Positions 2,765 through 21,867 of a DNA stretch of 31,518 nt are shown here, one piece after another (the stretch's first letter is position 1; each line of letters starts with the position of its first letter). The stretch lies in the UHGV virus genome UHGV-0133195; one strand, 5' to 3'. Under the pieces are notes generated by a model that worked only from the letters and a program-made list of their open reading frames with translations, searched no databases and was not told the DNA's origin. Origin of the DNA: a virus. A program made the translations under genes and the position numbers.

Positions 2765-3748
2765 ATGATTCGATCTCTCGTTAAATGGCCCGGTGGTAAA
2801 GGCCGCGTTATGCCTGATTTGCTGCCGATTCTGCCGAAAGCCGATTGCCTGGTGGAACCGTTTGTCGGCGGTGCTTCTGTTTTCCTCAATACTGAATATC
2901 GCCGTTATATCCTGGGTGATATCAACCCAGATTTAATTAACCTGTATCGCCAGATAACCCGCTGGCCTGATGCGGTGATCGACGCTGCTCGCCCGCTGTT
3001 TAAAGTGTACGGTGATAAAGACGGCTATAAGTGGATCCGCGACGATTTCAACGCTCGCGCCCATGACCTTCTGTCATCGCGCAATGTGTTTGAGGACGGA
3101 CCGGACGCGGGCAAGATTCTTCGTGCAGCACAGTTTCTTTACCTGAACCGTCACGGATATAACGGCGTAGTGCGCTACAACCAACAGGGCGGATATAACG
3201 TTCCCTTTGGTAGACACAAAACCCCGCCTTACTTCCCGGAAGAACAGATCCGTTTATTCTCTGAAAAAGCTAACGACACGAAAGCTATTTTCGTGTGCTG
3301 CGATTTCCAGAGCACGTTAAAAATCATGATTGGTAGTGACGCAGTTATCTACTGCGATCCGCCATACCTGCCAACAAGCGAAACCGCTAATTTCACCCAA
3401 TACCACACCGCCCCGTTTGGGATTAAAGAGCATCGCCAGTTAGCTGCAGCCCTGCTGGATATTAACCGCCTTACTGGTTCGCCGGTGATCCTGTCCAATA
3501 GCGACACCCCAGCCACCCGCGAGATTTATCGCGCTTTCAACTTCCAGGAAATCAGCGTTAACCGTTCTGTCAGTGCGAACGCCATTACCAGAGGGGCCGC
3601 CAGTGAAGTGATTGGCGTCCTGAAAGTGTGTAGCGGCTGCGGTCGTGCCGGTGGTGGCCGTTGCCCTGATTGTGGCCCTGTCATGGGTAACGCGACCTAT
3701 AACGAAATGCTGGCAACGGCTGCGGCCTATGGCGTGGAGCCGTTCTGA
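2765..3748 (+). CDS. N6-adenine DNA methyltransferase, Dam-like, with C-terminal Cys4 zinc-ribbon-like tail
   Basis: N-terminal WPGGKG and FVGGASVF motifs and catalytic DPPY (CDPPYLP); C-terminal CSGCGRAGGGRCPDCG cluster. Confidence 0.85.
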   Translation: MIRSLVKWPGGKGRVMPDLLPILPKADCLVEPFVGGASVFLNTEYRRYILGDINPDLINLYRQITRWPDAVIDAARPLFKVYGDKDGYKWIRDDFNARAHDLLSSRNVFEDGPDAGKILRAAQFLYLNRHGYNGVVRYNQQGGYNVPFGRHKTPPYFPEEQIRLFSEKANDTKAIFVCCDFQSTLKIMIGSDAVIYCDPPYLPTSETANFTQYHTAPFGIKEHRQLAAALLDINRLTGSPVILSNSDTPATREIYRAFNFQEISVNRSVSANAITRGAASEVIGVLKVCSGCGRAGGGRCPDCGPVMGNATYNEMLATAAAYGVEPF

Positions 3749-3975
3749 TGGTCACAAAACTGCAGATCTCATGCGCTGCGCCGGTAGGTGTCTGCGGTCA
3801 CGCAGCTGCCGAGCTGCGCCGCTTTTCTCGCGGCGTCAAAAACTATTCCCGCATCAAACCAAATTTTTACCTGGTGATCCGCATCGGTAGGCGCTGGCGC
3901 TTGCTGAGTAAAAACGGCGGCAAGGTCTGGTCACTGATGACACATGAAAAATACAACGTTGAGAGCAAGAAATGA
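3748..3975 (+). CDS. Small hypothetical protein (75 aa) translationally coupled between two methyltransferase genes
   Basis: ATG at 3748 overlaps the upstream TGA (ATGA) and its own TGA overlaps the next ATG at 3972; Arg/Lys-rich; no recognisable motif. Confidence 0.45.
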   Translation: MVTKLQISCAAPVGVCGHAAAELRRFSRGVKNYSRIKPNFYLVIRIGRRWRLLSKNGGKVWSLMTHEKYNVESKK

Positions 3976-4862
3976 CCGCTGCTTACTACAACGAAATCGA
4001 TCCATATGCAGCCCAGTGGCTGCGCAACCTTATGGCTGCGGGGTTGATTGCCCCTGGCTTTGTTGATGAAAGGAGTATTGAAGATGTCACACCCGCCGAT
4101 CTGCGCGGATTCACTCAAGTTCACTTCTTTGCCGGGATTGGTGTTTGGTCATATGCCCTGCGCCGCGCTGGCTGGCCGGACTCCAGACCAGTCTGGACAG
4201 GTTCTTGCCCGTGCCAGCCTTTCAGCCCGGCAGGCAAGGGAAAGGGATTTACTGACGAGCGGCACTTATGGCCCGCCATGCATTGGTTGGTTGGGCAGTG
4301 CGATCCTGTCGTTATCTTTGGCGAGCAATCTGCAAGCGCTGACGCAAATGACTGGATCGACCTTGTACAAGCAGACATGGAAGCAATGGGATATGCCTTC
4401 GGGGCGTGTGCGTTTCCGTCTGCGAGCGTCGGCGCACCGCACATCCGTGACAGAGCTTACTGGGTGGCCGACACCAACCGCGAGCAATACAAAGAATGCT
4501 TACCAGGACGCGCAGAAAGTCATTGCGCGGAGGCTTGCTGGCCGTCAGTCGAACTTACAAGATTTTGCCTGTCTGGCGGGGTGGCCTACACCAGCGGCAA
4601 GGGATCACAAAGGGGGGTATCAGGGGGCAGGATGCGCAACGGGAAGCTGTCAACGGACACTCTGGATGTGGTGGCACAGATAGCAGGCCCGGCCCGGTTA
4701 ACGGTTTCTGGGGATCTGCTGACTGGTTGTTCTGCCAGGATGAAAAGTGGCGGCCAGTTGAACCCGAACTTGTCCCGCTGGTTGATGGGGTTGCCTCCAG
4801 AGTGGGACGCCTTCGCGCCTACGGAAACGCCCTCAACGTTGAAGCGGCAACAGCGTTCATAA
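3972..4862 (+). CDS. C5-cytosine DNA methyltransferase (small, phage-type)
   Basis: Motif I-like FFAGIG, motif IV GSCPCQPFSPAGKG (catalytic PCQ), motif VIII-like HIRDRAYW, motif X-like LMGLPPEWD near the C-terminus. Confidence 0.75.
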   Translation: MTAAYYNEIDPYAAQWLRNLMAAGLIAPGFVDERSIEDVTPADLRGFTQVHFFAGIGVWSYALRRAGWPDSRPVWTGSCPCQPFSPAGKGKGFTDERHLWPAMHWLVGQCDPVVIFGEQSASADANDWIDLVQADMEAMGYAFGACAFPSASVGAPHIRDRAYWVADTNREQYKECLPGRAESHCAEACWPSVELTRFCLSGGVAYTSGKGSQRGVSGGRMRNGKLSTDTLDVVAQIAGPARLTVSGDLLTGCSARMKSGGQLNPNLSRWLMGLPPEWDAFAPTETPSTLKRQQRS

Positions 4863-4886
4863 AGGCTTACATGATGGGGGCATCCC

Positions 4887-7523
4887 ATGTCTGACGCCGC
4901 TTTTGCATGGTCCTGGAACGCGCCGCGCCCAGCTGTTGGCCTGTACACCTACGAACCGAAAAAAATCGCCCCGCTTGCCGGGGCGGTGGCGCATCATCCT
5001 GCCGTAAAAAAACACATCGATCACATCTTCAAACGCGCCGGTTACAACCCCGACGATGTTCGCGACCGTAACGCGCTTATCCAGGCGCTGGACAGGTACG
5101 AACCGTGCGGCCTGCCACTGGCCGCCCATCAAAATATAATCCGGCAGGAAATGGAAGCCGCCAAAGCTACGGCGGCAGCCTGGGCCAATACGCCGGAAGG
5201 TGTCGAAGCGCGTTTATTATCAGAGCCGTTCTTCATTCGTGAAGTCTGGCGCAAAAAAATTGAATGGTTACGGGCCAACCGTGAAGCCAGACACACCAAT
5301 GATTTTCTTATGGGGACCGTGAAAAAATCATTGCTGCGTCTTGATGTTGTGCGCACAAGGCAAGGTGTTTCGCCTGATCTCACCGGCGAACTGGCCGCGT
5401 ACTGGTTCGGGCGCTGGCAACGACTGGCTGATTTCACAAAGCGGGAGGCACTAAGCGCCGCTAATGAGATCGCCAGCCGCATGGCTGAAATGCTTGGGAC
5501 GGAATGCGAAGCCCTGGGGCGGAATGTTTCCGACATGAACGTCGAAGAACTGGACTGGCTTTATTGCCACCTGGGCCGCGAAATGCTGGCGCTTCGTATT
5601 GTGCCGCCTGCATGGTATGCGCCGTGGGAACGCGAGCGCATATGCACGGCCATTTTGCGTATGGCTTCGCCTGACTGGTGGGGGCGCAAAATCTGGCGCT
5701 TGCGTTGTGACTGGCGCGAGAACCAGCTGCGTGCTGTTGGCGCGGTAAATAAAAAAGCGCACGCCTACGTTAGCGCTTCCAGCCTGATCGAGTGGCAGGA
5801 ACAGCGCCGTAAAAACCGGGATTTTTTCAAAAGTCATGAACTGGTAGACGAAGACGGCAACGTTTCGTCGCTTGAGGAAATGATTAATAAATCCACGTCT
5901 AACCCGGCTATTCGTCGCCATGAGCTTATGGCCCGAATGGCTGGGGTTGAACTTGTCGCCCAAAGTCGCGGCGATGTTGGCATCTTCCTGACCATTACTT
6001 GCCCGTCGAAATATCACAGCAATATTGCGTCCGGCCACCATAACGCCAAATGGAATCATTCCACCGTCGCCCAGGCGCAGCGCTATTTATGCCGTGTATG
6101 GAACCGGGCAACCGCCAAACTGAAACGCGAAGATTTGCGCCCTTATGGCTTCCGCGTCGCCGAACCGCATCACGATGGGACACCACACTGGCACGCGTTG
6201 CTATTTATGCCACAAGAGCAGGTTAAAGCCACGGTTGCGATCCTTCGCGCCTACTTCATTGCGGAAGACCGCGACGAGCTGGGTCGCAATACCGGTGCTC
6301 GTTTCAAGTCAAAAAAAATGGACCCACGGAAAGGGTCAGCAACGGCGTATATCGCCAAATACATTTCGAAGAATATCGACGGTCACGCGCTGGCCGGTGA
6401 ACTGGACGACGAAAGCGGCAAGCCGCTGAATGAAACAGCCAAATATGCAATGGCCTGGGCGTCACTCCACCGCATCCGCCAGTTTCAGCCCATCGGACAG
6501 CCGCCCATATCGGTTTACCGCGAGCTGCGCAAACTGAGCAATCAGATCACGACCCGCCAGAAAATTGACAATACCTTCAAGCGCGGTGCGCCGTTGCTTG
6601 TGGATCCTGCAATGGATGCGGTTTGCGCCGCTGCCGATGTCGGGTGCTTTGCTACCTACATCATCCGCCAGGGTGGTGTTTTGATCCCGCGTGAAAACTA
6701 TGTCGTCCGTCTGGCCTATCAGCCAGCTGATGAAATGAATGCTTATTGTGAGATCCCCGAAAAGGTTTTCGGGGTCTGGTCGCCGCGTCTGGGTGATGCC
6801 TCCCGTATTTGCACCCGTCTGGTTAAGTGGAAAATCCGCGCCAAATCCAAAGCCACCACCGAGGCCAAAAACGGCCCCGGTTTGGGGGTTGCCCTTTTGC
6901 CGTCGCCAACCGGCGACGCTTGGAGTTCTGTCAATAACTCTACGGAAGACGAAAAAATCACCGATTTTTCACTGTCAGAAATGGCTGTGCCAGCTGACGG
7001 AGAGTTAAAGACAGAAGATTCAGACGATGAAATCGTCGATTTTGAAAATATGGACCAGCCAACGCGGCGCAAATTGATGCGGCGACTACGTGAAACACCA
7101 TTCAAAAGGCAGCAAAGCGGATCACCTTATGAGCCAGGGAGCGAATTAGATGTTGCCTGGCGTTCTGCCGTTGAAAAAACCGAGGCCAGATCGGCGGCTG
7201 ACAAGGCCAGGCGGGCAGCGCTTGCCCCTGCGGTTGCCAGTCTGCTGGCTGATGCGGCGTTGTGTTCGGTTGAGATTTCAGAGATTCAGGCCGTTTCGCT
7301 GTTAATGGGGAGCCGTCTGGAGATTGGCGGCAAAGTTTATCGGGCCAGTGCTGGCGGCCAGTTGATAACGCGTCAATTACCCGATGAGTCACGGACGGTG
7401 AATAAATTATGGGACCGTCTGCGGGATAACCACGGCATAGATGCCACGCGCCTGCGGTTTGATCCGGTCGGGGAGCATCAAAAAATGCTGGCAGGCGCGG
7501 AAGGTCGCCACCCAAAAGAATGA
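4887..7523 (+). CDS. A: Rolling-circle replication initiation endonuclease (P2 gpA-like, HUH superfamily)
   Basis: HUH motif PHWHALLF and paired catalytic tyrosines in AYIAKYISK; 878 aa, last gene of the early operon. Confidence 0.9.
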   Translation: MSDAAFAWSWNAPRPAVGLYTYEPKKIAPLAGAVAHHPAVKKHIDHIFKRAGYNPDDVRDRNALIQALDRYEPCGLPLAAHQNIIRQEMEAAKATAAAWANTPEGVEARLLSEPFFIREVWRKKIEWLRANREARHTNDFLMGTVKKSLLRLDVVRTRQGVSPDLTGELAAYWFGRWQRLADFTKREALSAANEIASRMAEMLGTECEALGRNVSDMNVEELDWLYCHLGREMLALRIVPPAWYAPWERERICTAILRMASPDWWGRKIWRLRCDWRENQLRAVGAVNKKAHAYVSASSLIEWQEQRRKNRDFFKSHELVDEDGNVSSLEEMINKSTSNPAIRRHELMARMAGVELVAQSRGDVGIFLTITCPSKYHSNIASGHHNAKWNHSTVAQAQRYLCRVWNRATAKLKREDLRPYGFRVAEPHHDGTPHWHALLFMPQEQVKATVAILRAYFIAEDRDELGRNTGARFKSKKMDPRKGSATAYIAKYISKNIDGHALAGELDDESGKPLNETAKYAMAWASLHRIRQFQPIGQPPISVYRELRKLSNQITTRQKIDNTFKRGAPLLVDPAMDAVCAAADVGCFATYIIRQGGVLIPRENYVVRLAYQPADEMNAYCEIPEKVFGVWSPRLGDASRICTRLVKWKIRAKSKATTEAKNGPGLGVALLPSPTGDAWSSVNNSTEDEKITDFSLSEMAVPADGELKTEDSDDEIVDFENMDQPTRRKLMRRLRETPFKRQQSGSPYEPGSELDVAWRSAVEKTEARSAADKARRAALAPAVASLLADAALCSVEISEIQAVSLLMGSRLEIGGKVYRASAGGQLITRQLPDESRTVNKLWDRLRDNHGIDATRLRFDPVGEHQKMLAGAEGRHPKE

Positions 7524-7579
7524 ATGCAATCGCGCTGACCGTCGCAACTGGTTGCGTCGGTTGGCGTGATTCTGCGGGT

Positions 7580-7605
7580 GCGGGCGGCAAAGAGCCCGCG
7601 TTTTT
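7580..7605 (+). terminator. Putative rho-independent terminator after gene A
   Basis: Stem GCGGGC (7580-7585) / GCCCGC (7594-7599) with 8-nt loop, followed by TTTTT (7601-7605). Confidence 0.5.
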
Positions 7606-7627
7606 AGCATGTGAAAAGTGAGGAAAG

Positions 7628-7828
7628 ATGAAAGTAAAAATTGGTTTTAATCACAGGAAAAATACCGTTTCGGGCGTGATTTGCGGCTGGTCTTGGGAGA
7701 AGGAAGAGATTCGGGCTATGGCCGAAAAGTTAGTCGAAGGGTGGTGCGAAGATGGTGTCGCCGTTGGCAAGAGCGGGCTTTTTGGTCTTAGGGTGAAAGT
7801 GACTGTCAATGGTACCGCACGATCATAA
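7628..7828 (+). CDS. Small hypothetical protein (66 aa)
   Basis: ORF with AGGAAAG Shine-Dalgarno upstream of the ATG; first gene in the A-to-Q accessory slot; no motif recognised. Confidence 0.45.
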   Translation: MKVKIGFNHRKNTVSGVICGWSWEKEEIRAMAEKLVEGWCEDGVAVGKSGLFGLRVKVTVNGTARS

Positions 7829-7917
7829 TCGGCAGTGCTGGCCATTTGTATCGAGGACGGTCATTTTTAACAGTGCTGCAGGTCAGGAATGGCCGTGCCA
7901 GCTGAGGGCGGGAAAGT

Positions 7918-8610
7918 ATGAGTTACCTGGGAAGTAAAGCGGCCAGCGGGGTCTTTCAGAAAATCATTGCCGAAATGCCCCCGCATGATACCTACATTGA
8001 AACGCATCTGGGCAGCGGTGCGGTGATGTTCCATAAACCGCCAGCCCAGCATTCTGTCGGGATTGATATTGATTCAGCTGCATTTTCGCTGACAAGGCGG
8101 CGCTGGAAAGATAAAGGATTAACGCCCCCTGACATCCATTTCCATTATGGCGATGCTGTCAGCTTTCTGGAGGGATATTTTGATTTTGCGACTGCGGGCC
8201 GGGTACTGATTTACGCCGATCCTCCTTACATGCCGGAAACGCGCACCAGTCGCGCCCGTTATCGCCATGAATACACCGTCGCCGATCATGAGCGCCTTTT
8301 ACGTTGCCTGATGTCACTGCCGGAAAATGTGAGTGTCATTTTGTCTGGCTACCCGTCGCAGCTTTATGACAGCACGCTGACCGGCTGGCGAACGCGGGAA
8401 TTTCAGGCCATGACGCGGGGCGGTGTGCGAACGGAAAAAATCTGGATGAATTATGAGGAAGGGAAAGCCTATTCCCACACCTTTGCCGGAAAGGACTACA
8501 ACGACCGGGCCAGGATAAAACGTAAAGCGGCACGCTGGCGGGATAAGTTCGCCGCCCTGCCGCCAGCGGAACGGCTGGCAATTATGACCGCGCTTTGTGA
8601 TGTCGAATAA
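7918..8610 (+). CDS. Second Dam-like N6-adenine DNA methyltransferase (short, 230 aa)
   Basis: YLGSKAAS and THLGSGAVMF motifs followed by catalytic DPPY (YADPPYMP); GGGAAAG Shine-Dalgarno upstream. Confidence 0.8.
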   Translation: MSYLGSKAASGVFQKIIAEMPPHDTYIETHLGSGAVMFHKPPAQHSVGIDIDSAAFSLTRRRWKDKGLTPPDIHFHYGDAVSFLEGYFDFATAGRVLIYADPPYMPETRTSRARYRHEYTVADHERLLRCLMSLPENVSVILSGYPSQLYDSTLTGWRTREFQAMTRGGVRTEKIWMNYEEGKAYSHTFAGKDYNDRARIKRKAARWRDKFAALPPAERLAIMTALCDVE

Positions 8611-8612
8611 AA

Positions 8613-8633
8613 AAGCCCGCTTTATGCGGGCTT
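8613..8633. terminator. Bidirectional rho-independent terminator between convergent genes
   Basis: Perfect 8-bp stem AAGCCCGC / GCGGGCTT with 5-nt loop, flanked by an A-run upstream and T-rich sequence downstream; sits between the stops at 8610 (plus) and 8637 (minus). Confidence 0.6.
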
Positions 8634-8636
8634 CGT

Positions 8637-8903
8637 TTATGCCGTCTGACCGTTGAGCAGGTCCAGCGCGAATTGACGTTCTTCCGGCTTGAGCCGGTCA
8701 ATCAGGAATTTAACCAGCTTGTTACCGGTCAGCCCGCTGGGGCTGAGAGTATGTGAAAACTGGGCGTTAAAAACAAAGGTGTGGCCGCATTCCACTTCCG
8801 TGCAGGCGCAGTATAAATCGGCCAGTTTTTTATCTTTCCAGTCAGATTTGCGAATGATGGCCGGTGAGCCGCATTCAGGACATTTAATTTTAAAAACTCG
8901 CAT
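8637..8903 (-). CDS. Ogr/Delta-family zinc-finger late transcription activator, putative
   Basis: CPEC ... CACTEVECGHTF spacing resembles P2 Ogr (CPLC ... CQNVNCSATF, recalled); start taken at ATG 8903 (MRVFKIKCPEC); the track ORF extends to 8963. Confidence 0.65.
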   Translation of the reverse strand: MRVFKIKCPECGSPAIIRKSDWKDKKLADLYCACTEVECGHTFVFNAQFSHTLSPSGLTGNKLVKFLIDRLKPEERQFALDLLNGQTA

Positions 8904-8959
8904 GTTCACCATCCCGCACGCCATTGCTAACAATGGGGATGATTTTAACTTAATTGCGC

Positions 8960-10021
8960 TCATTTTTCGCCCTTTTCGGCGGTAATTGCCGGGATATCCA
9001 CGTCAAAAACCAGGTGCAAATGTGGGGGGATCTCCGGGTCATTGTTGACGCCGTTCATTAGTTTGCGTTGCAACGGGATAACCTCATCCTTGCGATAGGT
9101 TGCGCGGGCCGTTTCAGGGTTGCCCATTATCGCGCCGTTGGTCGGGATAATACCCGCCAGACCTGCGGGGAAGCGGTGAGCTGTAAAGATATCCTGCGCG
9201 GTGATCCCTTTGATGTTGGCAAATTCATCCTTTGCGCTGACTTCGCCCACTGGCATGATTTTAACCCCTTCCGGGTCGCCCTTCGGGATGTTGATAAACA
9301 TATTGCGGAAGTTACCCAGCCCTTTGGACTGGGCGATCTTCTCTTTGATTTCGTTTTCCATTTCCAGCGTGAGATTGGGATCGCTGGTATAGAGAATAAA
9401 GCCCATGTGCGCCCCGTTATTGTAGTAACGGCGTCGGAAGATGGTTGCCTCACTGTTGAGTAACACCGAATGGATGCCGCCGATATAGTCAGGCAGGCCA
9501 TATACCTGCTGGCGCGGGTCGTACATTTTAAAGAAGACGATGTCTTCCGGGTCATAAATAAGCGCTGGCCCTTCCTGCAGGACAGCAAACGAGCCGTCTT
9601 TCCGGCAGCGCAGATACAGCGACGGCAGCGGCAGCAGGTCGATCACTTCCCCGAATACGTTACGAATTTTCAGGATAGCGACGTCACCAAACAGCAGGTA
9701 ATCAAAGACAGCCTGTTCGACCTGGTCAGGCGTCAGGCCGCCGCCGATATAGCCACCGGCCACCATATTGCGCCGCGCATACAGCACCCCGCCGTGTTGG
9801 CCGTTAAGGTTCGGCAACTGGGCCAGCGCCAGGCGATCAATCGGGAGTCGCCAGTGGTCATACTCATTGTCATACCAGATATTGTGATAATCAGTGCCGG
9901 TCGTCAGGATGGGTTCGGGTTCGCCAAATGTGATCACGCTTCCGCGCCCTGGCGTGAAGGATTCAACCTTGCTGCCGGTCATGGACCTGAATTTTTTATT
10001 ATTACGCTGTTTCTTTGTCAT
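8960..10021 (-). CDS. Q: Portal protein (P2 gpQ-like)
   Basis: 353-aa protein immediately downstream of and overlapping the terminase ATPase gene on the minus strand, in the P2-type Q-P arrangement divergent from the capsid operon. Confidence 0.8.
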   Translation of the reverse strand: MTKKQRNNKKFRSMTGSKVESFTPGRGSVITFGEPEPILTTGTDYHNIWYDNEYDHWRLPIDRLALAQLPNLNGQHGGVLYARRNMVAGGYIGGGLTPDQVEQAVFDYLLFGDVAILKIRNVFGEVIDLLPLPSLYLRCRKDGSFAVLQEGPALIYDPEDIVFFKMYDPRQQVYGLPDYIGGIHSVLLNSEATIFRRRYYNNGAHMGFILYTSDPNLTLEMENEIKEKIAQSKGLGNFRNMFINIPKGDPEGVKIMPVGEVSAKDEFANIKGITAQDIFTAHRFPAGLAGIIPTNGAIMGNPETARATYRKDEVIPLQRKLMNGVNNDPEIPPHLHLVFDVDIPAITAEKGEK

Positions 10022-19752: not shown

Positions 19753-21867
19753 ATGAGCCACCTGGATTTTACCCTGAGCCTGATCGATAAGCTGACGCGG
19801 CCATTAAAAACGGCCCAGTCTTCGCTGTCCGGCTTTGCTGAAAAATCGCAGGCGTCTTTTACAAAAATCGGGATCGGTGCGGCGGCTGTCTGGGGCGTGG
19901 CGCAGTCTATCGCGGGCGTGGTGGGTCCGGCGTATGAGATGAACGCCGCACTTGCAGAAGTGGGTTCCAAAGGCGTGGCAGAGGACGCGCTGAAGCGTCT
20001 GTCCGGCGAGGCTATGCGATTCAGTATGCGCTACGGCAAAGGGGCCGTTGATGTGGTCCGGTCAAGCTACGCGATGAAAGGCGCAATGGCGGGCCTGTCC
20101 GATCTGGACCTGCCCCGCGTCACCATCGCGGCCAATACCCTGGCGGCAGGCGTCAAGGCCAGCGGCGAAGAGGCAGGCGAATACATCGGCGCGATGGCGT
20201 CACGTTTCAACGCGGAGTTGTCCAGTCTGGGCCATGTGCGTTTTGCCGAAGAGCTGGCAGGAAAAACCGCGTACATGGTGCAAAACTTCGGCGTGAAAAT
20301 GCAGACCATGCAGGAGCTTATCGAGGGGACGAAAAGCGCCGGTGCTGACTTTGGCGTCAGCCTGGATGAACAGTTCGCCGTCCTGGGTACGCTTTCGCGC
20401 ACGCTGGGTACTGAGGCCAGCGGGATCTACGAGCAGTTTTTACGCAGCGCTCCGGCTGCCGCTGAAAAGCTGGGGATGAGCTTTGTCGATGCCACCGGAA
20501 AAATGCTGCCGATGGGCGACATTCTGCAAAAACTCCAGAGCAAATACGGGCAGAGCATCGAAGGGAACGTCAAGGCACAACAGGCGCTGGACGCCGCGTT
20601 CGGTGGTGGTGCTGACGTTATCAAAAAGCTGTACGGCCAGCAGGATAAATTAAACCGCAGCATCACCGAGCTGGGCCGAAATGACGGGATGAAACGCGCC
20701 CAGGAAATGGCCGCACGAATGGCCGAGCCGTGGGAGCGTATCAAAGCGACATTCTTTGCCATTCGCGTGGCGATTGGTAACACGCTGATCCCTATCCTGT
20801 CGCCGCTGATGAACCGTATTGCCGACGTCGGGACAAAATTTGCCCGCTGGCTGGATATGTTCCCGAATATTGCCCGCTGGCTGGGTTACATCACCCTGGG
20901 CGTGCTGTCCTTCGGGCTGGCCGGGGCGGCGGTCAATATCGTGATGGGGGTCTTTGGTTTCACCATGATGGGGCTGGCCGCAATCGCTAAGGTGCTGGGC
21001 GGCGCATGGAAACTCCTGTTATGGACGCTCAACCTGTTGCGTCCGTCCCTGCTGACGACGCGCATCGGCCTGGCTGCATTGTGGATCCAGTCAAAATTGC
21101 TGGCGCTGTGGACGGGTATCTGCCGCATCGCGCTTGCTGCATGGAATATCGCGTTAAAGGCCGGGGCCATTGCCATGCGGGTTTACGGTGCGGCGACCAT
21201 GTTTGCCGGAGCGGCAATGCAATTCCTGATGAGTCCGATCACCCTGATTATTGCCGGGCTGGCGCTTCTGGCCGTGGGGGTCTGGTACGTCATCACTCAC
21301 TGGAAAGAACTGGCGGCAGCCGTCATGAATACGGCGGCTTTTGCCTGGGTGATGTCAGTCGCGGAACAGGTGGGCCAGGTGTTTGCGCAGGTCTGGCAGT
21401 CCATCACTGACGGCTGGGCCGTGGTGGTTGATTTCTTTGCCGGTCTTTCCCCGCTTGCCACCTTTGAAGGGTTCGCGCAGACCATCGGCGGGGTATTCAG
21501 CAAACTTTTTGACGTCCTCAAAAATACCTTTGCATCTACCTATAACTGGATTGTTGAGAAGCTAAACAAGATCCCCGGCGTCAACATCGACCTGAAAACC
21601 GTTTCGCCACCGTCAGCGGCTGCCGTTCCGGCAAACGCGGTCATTCCTGACAGTGCTGCAGGTTCGTCGAAGCTGAACAGCCCGTCCGTGCTGACGGGGA
21701 ACCGAATTAATGCAGACATCCCACGCGGCGGCCTGATGAGTCAGGTTAAAACCGACAGCAAAACCGCCGTTGATAACCGTAAATCGTGGGGCGATACCTA
21801 CATCAACGCCCCCAATGGAATCACCCCGGCCCAGTTGGCTGAATGGCAGGAGCTTAACGCAGGATGA
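19753..21867 (+). CDS. Tail tape measure protein
   Basis: 704-aa protein with Ala/Gly-rich helical regions and a long hydrophobic central segment; located after the chaperone frameshift pair. Confidence 0.85.
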   Translation: MSHLDFTLSLIDKLTRPLKTAQSSLSGFAEKSQASFTKIGIGAAAVWGVAQSIAGVVGPAYEMNAALAEVGSKGVAEDALKRLSGEAMRFSMRYGKGAVDVVRSSYAMKGAMAGLSDLDLPRVTIAANTLAAGVKASGEEAGEYIGAMASRFNAELSSLGHVRFAEELAGKTAYMVQNFGVKMQTMQELIEGTKSAGADFGVSLDEQFAVLGTLSRTLGTEASGIYEQFLRSAPAAAEKLGMSFVDATGKMLPMGDILQKLQSKYGQSIEGNVKAQQALDAAFGGGADVIKKLYGQQDKLNRSITELGRNDGMKRAQEMAARMAEPWERIKATFFAIRVAIGNTLIPILSPLMNRIADVGTKFARWLDMFPNIARWLGYITLGVLSFGLAGAAVNIVMGVFGFTMMGLAAIAKVLGGAWKLLLWTLNLLRPSLLTTRIGLAALWIQSKLLALWTGICRIALAAWNIALKAGAIAMRVYGAATMFAGAAMQFLMSPITLIIAGLALLAVGVWYVITHWKELAAAVMNTAAFAWVMSVAEQVGQVFAQVWQSITDGWAVVVDFFAGLSPLATFEGFAQTIGGVFSKLFDVLKNTFASTYNWIVEKLNKIPGVNIDLKTVSPPSAAAVPANAVIPDSAAGSSKLNSPSVLTGNRINADIPRGGLMSQVKTDSKTAVDNRKSWGDTYINAPNGITPAQLAEWQELNAG

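Follow-up and report, generated by a model that had tools for sequence, protein, structure and literature searches.

INTRODUCTION

Several methyltransferases of restriction-modification systems, including M.SsoII, M.EcoRII and M.MspI, also bind an operator at their own promoter, apart from the methylation site. Enzymes of this type, which are paired with a cognate endonuclease, use an N-terminal HTH and possess a complete target-recognition domain. Another methyltransferase-like protein linked to its own promoter is Upf31 of the IncP-1beta plasmids, the only member of its family that has been tested; it represses its own promoter and affects the plasmid regulon (PMC11997246). In methylase-free E. 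coli, Upf31 produced no SMRT-detectable methylation, and, by digestion with DpnI and MboI, GATC sites stayed unmethylated in methylase-free or dam- E. coli (PMC11997246). The authors of that study left RNA open as a target (PMC11997246).

In P2-like phages, the interval between gpA and gpQ is a known cargo hotspot, which in P2 holds cargo of the tin/old type (PMC9122126, PMC13586616). Here we describe this interval in a window of 31,518 nucleotides, the whole stretch of viral DNA analysed (UHGV-0133195). Judged from the sequences, a single family unites a methyltransferase-like gene of this P2-like phage, Upf31 of IncP-1beta plasmids and the ORF that opens an IS66-like insertion sequence; its members have in common a recognition module of reduced size and a portable dyad element.

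RESULTS AND DISCUSSION

The gpA-gpQ interval holds a swappable cassette

The whole window is about 98% identical to the Salmonella phages SI7, SW3 and SW5 (Peduoviridae), and its genome is that of a P2-like Salmonella phage related to these three. The features discussed below are collected in Table 1.

Table 1. Positions of features in the window (nucleotide 1 is the first letter of the window)
Feature	Position	Strand	Remarks
Full Dam	2765-3748
Dcm-like gene	3972-4862
gpA	4887-7523	+	PF05840 match, 4.6e-107
Terminator-like hairpin 3' of gpA	7579-7605	+	GC stem and U-run; left cassette edge
Cargo cassette in the gpA-gpQ hotspot	7604-8635		66-aa ORF, operator-like element and Upf31-family methyltransferase gene
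66-aa ORF (putative coding)	7628-7828	+	Good Shine-Dalgarno; preceded by GAGGAAAG
Conserved two-dyad element upstream of methyltransferase gene	7816-7906	+	Putative operator/promoter region
Unit 1 of element	7817-7845		Ends in GTGCTGGCCAT
Unit 2 of element	7853-7884		Ends in GTGCTGCAGGTC
230-aa Upf31-family SAM-dependent amino-methyltransferase ("mini-Dam"), predicted	7918-8610	+	DPPY at residues 101-104
Bidirectional intrinsic terminator hairpin, gap between methyltransferase gene and ogr	8612-8634		Right cassette edge
Ogr/Delta-type zinc-finger late activator gene, 108 aa	8637-8963	-	PF04606 2.6e-17; phrog_603 6.6e-42
Portal gene	8960-10021	-
Unit-2-like site, second copy	21633-21664	+	AAACGCGGTCATTCCTGACAGTGCTGCAGGTT; inside tape-measure ORF

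When the window was compared by blastn with a prophage of E. coli 2011C-4251, identity of 94-96% extended up to position 7603 and resumed from 8636, and in the prophage the same slot was occupied by 3.3 kb with an unrelated 925-aa ORF. The gpA-gpQ interval is here demonstrably swappable, variable cargo, as an earlier note on this DNA had proposed for a P2-like locus of this kind: E. coli prophages with about 96% identity outside the cassette have the 925-aa gene in its place. The 66-aa ORF, the 230-aa ORF with its DPPY motif and the Ogr/Delta gene were all found where the earlier note had placed them, and the PF04606 match and the folding of the right-hand hairpin bore out the Ogr-type gene and the bidirectional terminator that it had described.

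The hairpin at the left edge folds at -15.9 kcal/mol and has a GUUUUU tail, and with a z-score of only -1.0 it is a consensus-type call. The hairpin at the right edge is stable when folded on either strand (-16.3 and -17.4 kcal/mol; z-scores of -3.95 and -5.08), and its U-run is strong on the minus strand, that of ogr, and weaker on the plus strand.

The cassette resembles P2 cargo of the tin/old type in its slot, in its cassette-like replacement between close relatives and in the terminators at both flanks (PMC9122126, PMC13586616). Unlike such cargo, it has no similarity to known defence proteins, and it recurs in very divergent P2-like phages, being better conserved than the flanking core genes. 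In phage L160, the methyltransferase is 78% identical to that of the window, whereas gpA and the portal protein are only 38% and 31% identical, respectively. Non-defence cargo thus recurs in this hotspot, as a cassette that moves among very divergent P2-like phages.

A Dam-like core with a predicted loss of the target-recognition domain

The 230-aa protein consists of a Rossmann core (residues 1-177) that includes a hypervariable central module (about 39-100) and of a C-terminal basic two-helix domain (194-229), the helices of which span residues 194-213 and 216-229 in the AF2 model. The AdoMet-binding class-I fold, which the earlier note had named as the point to check, was found both in this model (pLDDT of 85.9) and in the motifs, with motif I (FxGxG-like) and the N-terminal motif X present.

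Across 57 representatives with 38-65% identity to the query, residues G5, G32, D101, P103, H124, S143, Y150, E173, G191 and R197 are invariant. Of the DPPY motif, D101 and P103 are thus invariant, and conservation of P102 and Y104 is 90% or more. The C-terminal residues R197, R199, K203, R206 and W207 are also invariant. The mean column identity of the family is 32%. Synonymous and nonsynonymous differences between close variants of the gene numbered 10:2 and 18:3, and the methyltransferase gene is therefore under purifying selection.

The best profile matches are models of Type II or orphan methyltransferases (PDLC03244, 4e-28; phrog_56, 2.6e-35). PF02086 was matched with a score of 25.9 (cut-off of 22) over residues 93-145 only, and the TIGR00571 score of 35.1 is below the cut-off of 114.85. 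Compared with Dam, DpnM and T4 Dam (D12 class, alpha-type), the protein lacks the target-recognition domain of about 85-100 residues between motifs I-III and motif IV, and it has an extra C-terminal two-helix domain. Residues 82-169 of DpnM and 71-171 of EcoDam have no counterpart in the family profile, and the query has about 18-50 residues there. The best explanation is that the 230-aa protein represents a Dam-derived class-I SAM-dependent amino-methyltransferase core from which the target-recognition domain of Dam has been lost, with the short hypervariable central module in place of that domain and a conserved basic two-helix domain at the end.

The gene had been described as a paralogue-like second adenine methyltransferase of the phage. 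We rejected paralogy with the phage's own Dam, with which the protein shares 28% identity over 76 residues (E of 1e-5); it falls in the Upf31 family and lacks the target-recognition domain, and the phage has three methyltransferase-like genes (Dam, the Dcm-like gene and the 230-aa protein) rather than the two counted earlier. A non-specific methylase of the M.EcoGII type was likewise rejected, since M.EcoGII is a beta-class enzyme (PMC7544214) and so belongs to another family.

Conservation in the family is lowest in the central module: 0.31 for residues 45-96, compared with 0.53-0.63 for the rest. In the near-identical phage L098, the central module is replaced between flanks that are 93-100% identical at the nucleotide level, and the hypervariable module of about 60 residues has been swapped by recombination. 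The upstream element of L098 is nearly identical despite the different module. Operator reading and the variable module are therefore uncoupled, and a role of the module in specificity is only putative.

Such a hypervariable, recombining module would be expected of a specificity determinant in an arms race, and the protein could be an orphan N6-adenine methyltransferase of the conventional kind, specific for a short motif of its own in dsDNA, and so add to phage DNA a third methylation pattern that evades host restriction. The DPPY and FxGxG-type motifs on a Dam-like core, the Type II/orphan models (PDLC03244, phrog_56) as best profiles, the strong purifying selection and the solitary gene on phages and conjugative plasmids fit this reading as well. 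We nevertheless consider it unlikely. The target-recognition domain of Dam (about 85-100 residues) is absent, TIGR00571 gives 35 bits against a cut-off of 115, and the 47%-identical Upf31 was negative by SMRT and for GATC methylation (PMC11997246); moreover, a full Dam and a Dcm-like gene are already present in the phage for that purpose. Because the only tested member of the family gave no detected methylation and is an autorepressor, the earlier suggestion of two Dam-class enzymes with distinct specificities is not a safe reading.

Upf31 of IncP-1beta plasmids is a full-length homologue

Upf31 of pBP136 matches the phage protein over its full length (47% identity, E of 1e-69, residues 1-230 against 1-221), and by this comparison the 230-aa protein belongs to the Upf31 family (upf31.0 of the IncP-1beta plasmids pBP136 and R751). 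Residues F189, Y194 and W207 of the phage protein align with Y180, F185 and W198 of Upf31, the mutation of which abolished Upf31 function (PMC11997246).

The two proteins are alike in length class, motif set and C-terminal helical domain, and both are encoded by a solitary gene on a mobile element, downstream of a dyad-bearing region in which the GCTGGCCA and GCTGCAGGTC motifs are held in common. They differ in that the phage gene is placed after gpA and has no KorB partner, and in that the phage upstream element has no canonical TTGACA/-10 boxes and its dyad half-sites are different. No homologue of KorB or ParB was present in the gene tables of SW5 and related prophage loci.

Binding of KorB has been proposed for the C-terminal domain of the Upf31 type in plasmids, and by these gene tables the phages have no KorB. 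The conservation of this domain in phages and insertion sequences argues against KorB binding as its general role. In comparison with the known M.SsoII, M.EcoRII and M.MspI type, the phage locus is without an endonuclease and the protein without a full recognition domain.

The gene occurs on phages, conjugative plasmids and an IS66-like insertion sequence

Mobile elements of three kinds carry the gene: diverged P2-like phages, in which it directly follows gpA, conjugative plasmids and an IS66-like insertion sequence. Among viral homologues with at least 49% identity, 36 of 37 lie directly after gpA. Copies covering at least 80% of the protein were found on 138 plasmids, and most plasmid matches are conjugative; on plasmids, the gene has blocks of transfer (trb/tra) genes on both sides and the relaxase close by. 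In a multicopy IS66-like insertion sequence with a DDE transposase, it is the first of the ORFs. On phages and conjugative plasmids the gene is solitary, and the plasmid and insertion-sequence copies have no partner genes. Our literature search returned no IS66-associated methyltransferase ORF, nor was this gene found in the P2 hotspot papers.

In one search, clustering at 90% identity grouped the homologues of about 225 aa into 2,393 protein clusters; a second search, with E up to 1e-30, gave 640 clusters at 50% identity. Thousands of these proteins carry the database label "DNA adenine methylase", and the sole tested member did not methylate DNA. The negative result with Upf31 could also mean that the whole family never methylates DNA. 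The finding of a single family changes how such phage methyltransferases are read, and it offers the plasmid field two independent natural contexts without KorB in which to work out the role of Upf31.

The HUH nickase gpA is consistently adjacent to the gene in phages, and a relaxase is nearby on plasmids. This arrangement is consistent with a methyltransferase for a substrate other than dsDNA, which might be RNA (m6A/m2G type), ssDNA from gpA rolling-circle replication or conjugative transfer, or a protein amide, and RNA was left open by the authors of the Upf31 study (PMC11997246). Against this stand the sequence affinity of the protein specifically to the Dam/D12 family of DNA methyltransferases and the IS66 context, in which the transposase is a DDE enzyme and there is no HUH enzyme. 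We regard a non-dsDNA substrate as quite improbable.

A two-dyad element precedes the gene and recurs elsewhere

In all P2-like loci inspected, the two-dyad element is conserved ahead of the gene. Its dyads are 84.6% paired with 19 compensatory cells, a level reached by none of 500 shuffles. The GCTGGCCA and GGTGCTGCAGGTC motifs and the dyad layout are common to the phage element and the upf31 promoter region of pBP136, at which autorepression was shown experimentally (PMC11997246). The upf31 promoter/operator used in the comparison reads TTGACA GCATCG-N10-CGATGC TGGCCA, and the IS66-linked copies, with matching motifs and layout, read TTGACA-CATAG-N8-10-CTATGCT. We read the phage element as a putative operator/promoter region that travels with the gene.

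A sigma-70 promoter scan of positions 7400-9100 gave no match, with no recognisable -35/-10 in the element, and the methyltransferase gene may simply be read through from the early operon. By eye, no Ogr-type late-promoter box (TGT-N12-ACA) was seen upstream of the gene. RNA structure was also considered for the element and was not supported (fold z-score of -0.41); the mismatch counts (43 G·T and 33 A·C) leave an RNA hairpin and a DNA palindrome indistinguishable.

The site in the tape-measure ORF matches unit 2 at 24 of 32 positions, and a 20-mer search allowing up to 3 mismatches returned 2 sites against 0.00 expected. E. coli relatives without the gene keep the tape-measure site, where identity of about 96% makes the retention uninformative. 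Further copies of the element lie at the G/U junction and in the lysis region of P2-like genomes. The element also occurs in P2-like prophages without the gene, such as E. coli ABWA45 and Enterobacter phage phiT5282H, and it may therefore function independently of the methyltransferase protein.

Alternatively, the protein might act chiefly by binding DNA as a transcription regulator, with a methyltransferase fold that no longer serves an enzyme; like Upf31, it would bind the dyads scattered in its own element and tune phage expression. The conserved upstream dyads together with the copies at the G/U junction, in the lysis region and in the tape-measure ORF agree with such a regulator, as do the conserved basic C-terminal helices and the autorepression and plasmid regulon effects of Upf31 (PMC11997246). 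However, the catalytic and SAM-binding residues are invariant, which a fold used for binding only would not preserve; the element persists in phages without the gene, and changes of the variable module are not mirrored in the upstream element. A protein that only regulates seems to us improbable, more so than the orphan methyltransferase discussed above.

Proposed function

We propose that the main gene of the swappable gpA-gpQ cassette encodes an autoregulated methyltransferase of the Upf31 family that acts on the nucleic acid of its own element and is not a defence gene, a proposal to which we give an even chance. The gene arrives with its own two-dyad cis element. The protein would bind this element, probably as a dimer through the C-terminal helices, and so keep its own expression low, as shown for Upf31. 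As a catalytically competent methyltransferase, it would target the nucleic acid of its own element at few or special sites and not at a frequent short motif; few or special sites are proposed because Upf31 gave no SMRT signal and no GATC methylation. For the phage, the role could be self-marking, regulation or counter-restriction, and not anti-phage defence.

A narrower version of this proposal, which we hold to be speculative and to rank below the purely regulatory reading, is that Upf31-like proteins are "self-marking" dimeric adenine methyltransferases without a target-recognition domain, with recognition, and perhaps methylation, confined to the long dyad repeats of their own element. The repeats meant are the operator, the inverted-repeat clusters of IncP-1beta plasmids, the copies at the G/U junction and in the lysis region, and the tape-measure site. 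To judge from the primers in PMC11997246, the Upf31 expression vector was presumably without the upf31 operator. If self-marking were true, the vector without the operator would explain the missing methylation signal of Upf31, and phages, conjugative plasmids and an IS66-like transposon would have a portable epigenetic and autoregulatory circuit in common.

The 66-aa ORF and the ogr gene

Homologues of the 66-aa ORF formed no more than 3 protein clusters, with identities of 94% or above, and most loci that bear the methyltransferase gene are without it. The synonymous and nonsynonymous counts (1:2, 2:4 and 3:4) revealed no purifying selection. At the same position, SEN5_44 has a weak similarity to the ORF (29% over 58 aa, pairwise E of 1e-3), and a small Vibrio ORF has no homology to it. 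By these comparisons the putative ORF is lineage-restricted and under little constraint. The homology and structure searches suggested earlier for both proteins placed the 230-aa protein in the Upf31 family with an AdoMet fold, and they returned no match for the 66-aa ORF in Pfam, NCBIfam, PHROG or PADLOC.

Given its position in a defence hotspot (PMC9122126, PMC13586616), the pair of the 66-aa ORF and the methyltransferase gene might be an anti-phage defence or toxin-type module comparable to tin/old cargo, and the methyltransferase has weak PADLOC matches to PD-Lambda-5_B (4e-6) and mad2 (7e-5). These matches cover the generic DPPY region only, and neither a nuclease nor an effector accompanies the gene. 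Most gene-bearing loci are without the 66-aa ORF, which is not under purifying selection, and the same gene occurs in plasmids and insertion sequences without partners. When all three ORFs were searched against Pfam, NCBIfam, PHROGs and PADLOC, no defence-specific match was found, and besides the weak DPPY-region matches PADLOC returned generic methyltransferase models only. A defence module is therefore, in our estimate, very improbable. Of the non-canonical roles listed in the earlier note (defence, anti-defence or regulation), regulation has the most outside support, whereas defence left no signature.

The ogr gene is 92% conserved among relatives and is therefore a core gene and not cargo. 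Its ATG overlaps the portal stop codon (ATGA), so that the portal/terminase transcription unit has ogr at its 3' end. Alternative starts of ogr lie at 8912 and 8903, and E. coli relatives are annotated with a 91-aa form.

Contents of the gpA-gpQ interval

The table below lists the features of the interval between the replication gene (gpA) and the portal gene (gpQ). Both the ORF list and the sequence showed that the features described in an earlier note (a 66-aa ORF, a second short Dam-like methyltransferase gene, an Ogr-type zinc-finger gene and a bidirectional terminator) were all present as described. The feature is already known: the Salmonella phages SI7, SW3 and SW5 (Peduoviridae, Irrigatiovirus), which are ~98% identical to the window, have the three ORFs labeled "hypothetical protein," "DNA methylase" and "transcriptional regulator" in their public records, and the methyltransferase family has one studied member.

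Features of the interval and of related loci (L097, E. coli 2011C-4251 prophage; L072, environmental genome; L095, L096 and L101, other database loci compared)
Feature	Position	Strand	Remarks
Full-length Dam, 327 aa	2765-3748		TIGR00571, 259 bits
Dcm-like gene, between Dam and gpA	3972-4862		phrog_363, 4e-70
gpA	4887-7523	+	PF05840, 4.6e-107
Terminator-like hairpin and U-run, 3' of gpA	7579-7605
66-aa ORF	7628-7828	+	Shine-Dalgarno GAGGAAAG ahead of start
Two-dyad element, upstream of methyltransferase gene	7816-7906
230-aa ORF	7918-8610	+	DPPY, residues 101-104
Bidirectional terminator hairpin	8612-8634	both	good terminator each way
Ogr/Delta zinc-finger gene	8637-8963	-	PF04606, 2.6e-17
Portal gene	8960-10021	-
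Unit-2-like site inside tape-measure ORF	21633-21664		24/32 positions match
925-aa protein gene	L097:7138-9915		also in 18 other E. coli genomes
IS66-like insertion sequence	L072:4837-7128		2,292 bp; terminal inverted repeats GTAACTACTC
Element copies outside the methyltransferase locus	L095:15008-15100, L095:7518-7620; L101:4976-5070; L096:26160-26250, L096:26817-26870

The phage has three methyltransferase-like genes (Dam, a Dcm-like gene and the gene for the 230-aa protein) rather than the two counted in the earlier note. The Dcm-like gene, which scored only 26 bits against TIGR00675 (cut-off, 100), is a second variable cargo position. The phage Dam has a C-terminal tail of ~40 residues, within which residues 287-316 matched a brief segment of exodeoxyribonuclease VIII/RecE-type models (NF007259, 1.9e-6; phrog_20376, 4e-10). 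The E. coli relatives are without the Dcm-like gene, and window 3613-4897 has no counterpart there.

The cassette is exchanged as a unit

In 19 complete E. coli genomes, we found a prophage that is 94 to 96% identical to the window on both flanks. Homology to these prophages breaks off at 7603, just past the gpA hairpin, and returns at the bidirectional terminator (8636); in place of the cassette (7604-8635), they carry 3.3 kb coding for a 925-aa protein. The varying unit of the slot is therefore the cassette. The 925-aa protein, which had no match in Pfam or PADLOC, is a candidate for an uncharacterized cargo or defense gene. Since the slot is replaced in the E. coli prophages and the gpA-gpQ interval is a published defense hotspot of P2-like phages (PMC9122126, PMC13586616), the interval is not invariant core sequence, and the proposal that it is a variable locus holds. 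That the cassette is itself a defense module, as its place in a hotspot would allow, seems very improbable. An AbiH-family gene is located at L097:31615-32580, immediately beyond the phage genes listed for that stretch.

The ogr-like gene lies outside the swapped segment, and its nucleotide sequence is 92 to 93% conserved in the E. coli relatives; it is core, not cargo. The start codon of ogr and the stop codon of the portal gene overlap (ATGA), which puts ogr at the 3' end of the portal/terminase unit. This place downstream of the portal gene differs from P2, in which ogr follows gene D. The overlapping ATG is borne by an N-terminal extension of 20 residues (window 8903-8963, minus strand). 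A shorter 91-aa Ogr, starting at the equivalent of 8912, is annotated in the E. coli relatives, and in Hafnia the alignment of the long form begins right where the portal alignment stops.

The 66-aa ORF is confined to the phage lineage of the window (three clusters, each at least 94% identical) and is missing from most loci bearing the methyltransferase gene. It had no family match in Pfam, NCBIfam, PHROG or PADLOC, and its synonymous-to-nonsynonymous counts (1:2, 2:4 and 3:4) were near the expectation under no constraint. The sole support for the ORF is a good ribosome-binding site, plus a weak resemblance to SEN5_44, which occupies the same position (29% over 58 residues; pairwise E, 1e-3). 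The ORF may encode a small, rapidly evolving protein, or it may not be a gene.

The 230-aa protein is a stripped-down Dam derivative

Dam-type profiles matched the 230-aa protein in two separate pieces, the N-terminal ~50 residues and ~90 onwards. PF02086 gave 25.9 bits over residues 93-145 only, and TIGR00571 (cut-off, 115 bits) gave 35 bits; PDLC03244 (4e-28) and phrog_56 (2.6e-35) also matched. Against proteins of solved structure, residues 16-44 aligned with DpnM 27-57 and residues 97-170 with DpnM 190-266. The AdoMet-binding fold, on which the methyltransferase assignment had depended, is therefore real. The family profile has no counterpart of DpnM 82-169 and EcoDam 71-171, the region that forms the target-recognition domain in Dam structures. 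The protein is a reduced derivative of Dam and not a Dam; the suggestion of a paralogue-like second Dam did not stand, as identity to the phage's own Dam is only 28% over 76 residues.

The short-form family is very common, with 2,393 clusters at 90% identity in one search and 6,433 representatives at 50% identity in an exhaustive search (640 of these at E of 1e-30 or below); the majority align over residues 1-227. Among 57 representatives that are 38 to 65% identical to the query, G5, G32, D101, P103, H124, S143, Y150, E173, G191 and R197 were invariant, and K7, P21, H23, Y26, E28, K40, Y99, P102, Y104, R206 and others were at least 90% conserved. The C-terminal basic helix (R197, R199, K203, R206 and W207) was invariant in a second sample. 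Close variants of the gene had synonymous-to-nonsynonymous counts of 10:2 and 18:3, which indicates that the enzyme core is under purifying selection.

Residues 45-96 had the lowest conservation in the family (0.31, against 0.53 to 0.63 elsewhere). A phage contig near-identical to the window (L098:3291-4010) carries a mosaic allele in which residues ~39-100 are swapped and 9 residues are inserted, with flanking nucleotides 93 to 100% identical and the upstream element almost unchanged. This allele indicates that the central module was exchanged by recombination, and the module seems to behave like a swappable specificity or interaction module.

Relationship to Upf31

The upf31 product of plasmid pBP136 (L014:25336-26007) is 47% identical to the 230-aa protein over the full length (E, 1e-69). 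Upf31 was long annotated as an adenine methylase, yet it failed to restore GATC methylation to a dam- host, and its overexpression in methylase-free E. coli ER2796 produced no SMRT-detectable modification (PMC11997246). Instead, Upf31 represses its own promoter and de-represses the KorA, KorB and KorC regulons, for which its C-terminal domain is required; substitution of Y180, F185 or W198 abolishes the effect (PMC11997246). The aligned positions in the phage protein are F189, Y194 and W207. As the only experimental data for the family, these results point to DNA binding and regulation rather than to bulk DNA methylation. A conventional orphan methyltransferase acting at frequent DNA sites, which the AdoMet-binding fold would fit, is doubtful, given that the recognition domain is missing and that the Upf31 methylome was negative.

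A two-dyad element accompanies the gene

Unit 1 of the element is GCACGATCATAATCGGCAGTGC followed by TGGCCAT, and unit 2 is GACGGTCATTTTTAACAGTGC followed by TGCAGGTC. The layout was kept in every P2-like locus examined, and the dyad arms co-vary (Klebsiella, GCACGGTCA/TGACCGTGC; Symbiopectobacterium, GCACAGACA/TGTCTGTTC). In 24 distinct sequences, 84.6% of dyad cells paired, compared with 27 to 36% in most slid controls; 19 cells were compensatory, a number reached by 0 of 500 shuffles. An RNA hairpin was not supported: the fold was no better than that of shuffled RNA (z, -0.41), and the G·T and A·C mismatch counts (43 and 33) did not favor one.

The upf31 promoter region of pBP136 reads TTGACA GCATCG-N10-CGATGC TGGCCAAG, with GCATCGCCA-ttcc-TGGCGGTGC TGCAGGTC farther upstream. 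In phage and plasmid, the gene is thus accompanied by the same putative operator architecture and even by the same flanking motifs; in the plasmid, this region is the promoter repressed by Upf31 (PMC11997246). Copies linked to an IS66-like element have cTTGACA-CATAG-N8-10-CTATGCTG (-35 box, dyad and -10 box) and share the promoter-plus-dyad architecture but not the flanking motifs. The P2-like element has only degenerate -35 and -10 boxes, and a promoter scan of the region found nothing; transcription may depend on early-operon read-through or an activator.

The identification of the interval as a gpA-gpQ hotspot cassette that encodes an Upf31-family mini-methyltransferase and has its own dyad element is well supported. 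Both the operator homology and what is known of Upf31 speak for autoregulation through DNA binding. A pure regulator would fit these data, but it is unlikely, since the invariant catalytic and SAM-binding residues and purifying selection argue that methyl transfer matters. That transfer could be to single-stranded DNA, RNA or another substrate, which we consider quite improbable. The mechanism that we infer and favor, with the case about evenly poised, is an autoregulated enzyme that would act on a small number of targets, or on special ones, in its own element.

Additional copies of the element were found elsewhere in P2-like genomes, partly within tape-measure genes. For the tape-measure site of the window, the chance expectation of the search was 0.00. 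SEN5 has one full two-unit copy where the tail-fibre-assembly gene and gpU converge (the G/U junction) and another between the endolysin and spanin genes (lysis region), and 3LV2017 has partial copies. The exact motif GTGCTGGCCAT-N2-3-TATCGAG occurred 57 times in viral contigs among the matches listed: 31 copies upstream of the methyltransferase gene, 2 more on incomplete contigs, and 24 contigs with a copy at the G/U junction. A terminator follows the junction element directly, which gives it the look of an "empty" promoter-operator. Because E. coli ABWA45 and Enterobacter phage phiT5282H have the G/U copy and no methyltransferase gene detectable at the search sensitivity used, the element may have a role independent of the 230-aa protein. 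The dispersed phage copies parallel the four inverted-repeat clusters of IncP-1beta plasmids.

The gene is carried by phages, plasmids and insertion sequences

In the P2-like loci examined, the gene was always directly 3' of gpA, ahead of ogr or the portal gene, in prophages of Pectobacterium, Salmonella, Klebsiella, Yokenella, Citrobacter, Hafnia, Serratia, Pragia and Vibrio and in phages SEN4/5 and 3LV2017; gpA precedes 36 of 37 viral-contig homologues (at least 49% identity). The position holds where gpA and portal are only ~30 to 40% identical to those of the window and the methyltransferase is 50 to 80% identical, which suggests that the cassette moves between phages. The gene is still minority cargo, found in 21 of 382 gpA-bearing phage records and, among 5,426 E. 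coli genomes, in about 8 to 11.

In plasmids, tblastn matches spanned at least 80% of the protein in 138 records. Among all records with any match, 131/190 were typed conjugative, and many were IncP-1beta plasmids, in which the gene follows upf30.5; in a Xanthomonas plasmid it lies between trbM and the relaxase gene. In many environmental Proteobacteria and Acidobacteria MAGs (many loci of L026-L094), an IS66-like unit of ~2.3 kb is present in 4 to 10 near-identical copies per genome. Its ORF 1 is a full-length Upf31 homologue 46 to 53% identical to the window protein, and ORF 2 is an IS66-family DDE transposase (PF03050, 4e-43). Canonical IS66 elements carry tnpA and tnpB, whose place is occupied here by the methyltransferase-like ORF. 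The family is thus a solitary gene borne by mobile elements. The link among phage, plasmid and IS66-like element, the shared operator and the reduced recognition module were not found in the literature searched.

KorB is absent from the phage contexts, as judged by gene tables, and from the insertion-sequence contexts, so the conserved C-terminal domain is not a KorB-binding device in general; dimerization or DNA binding is its more likely role.
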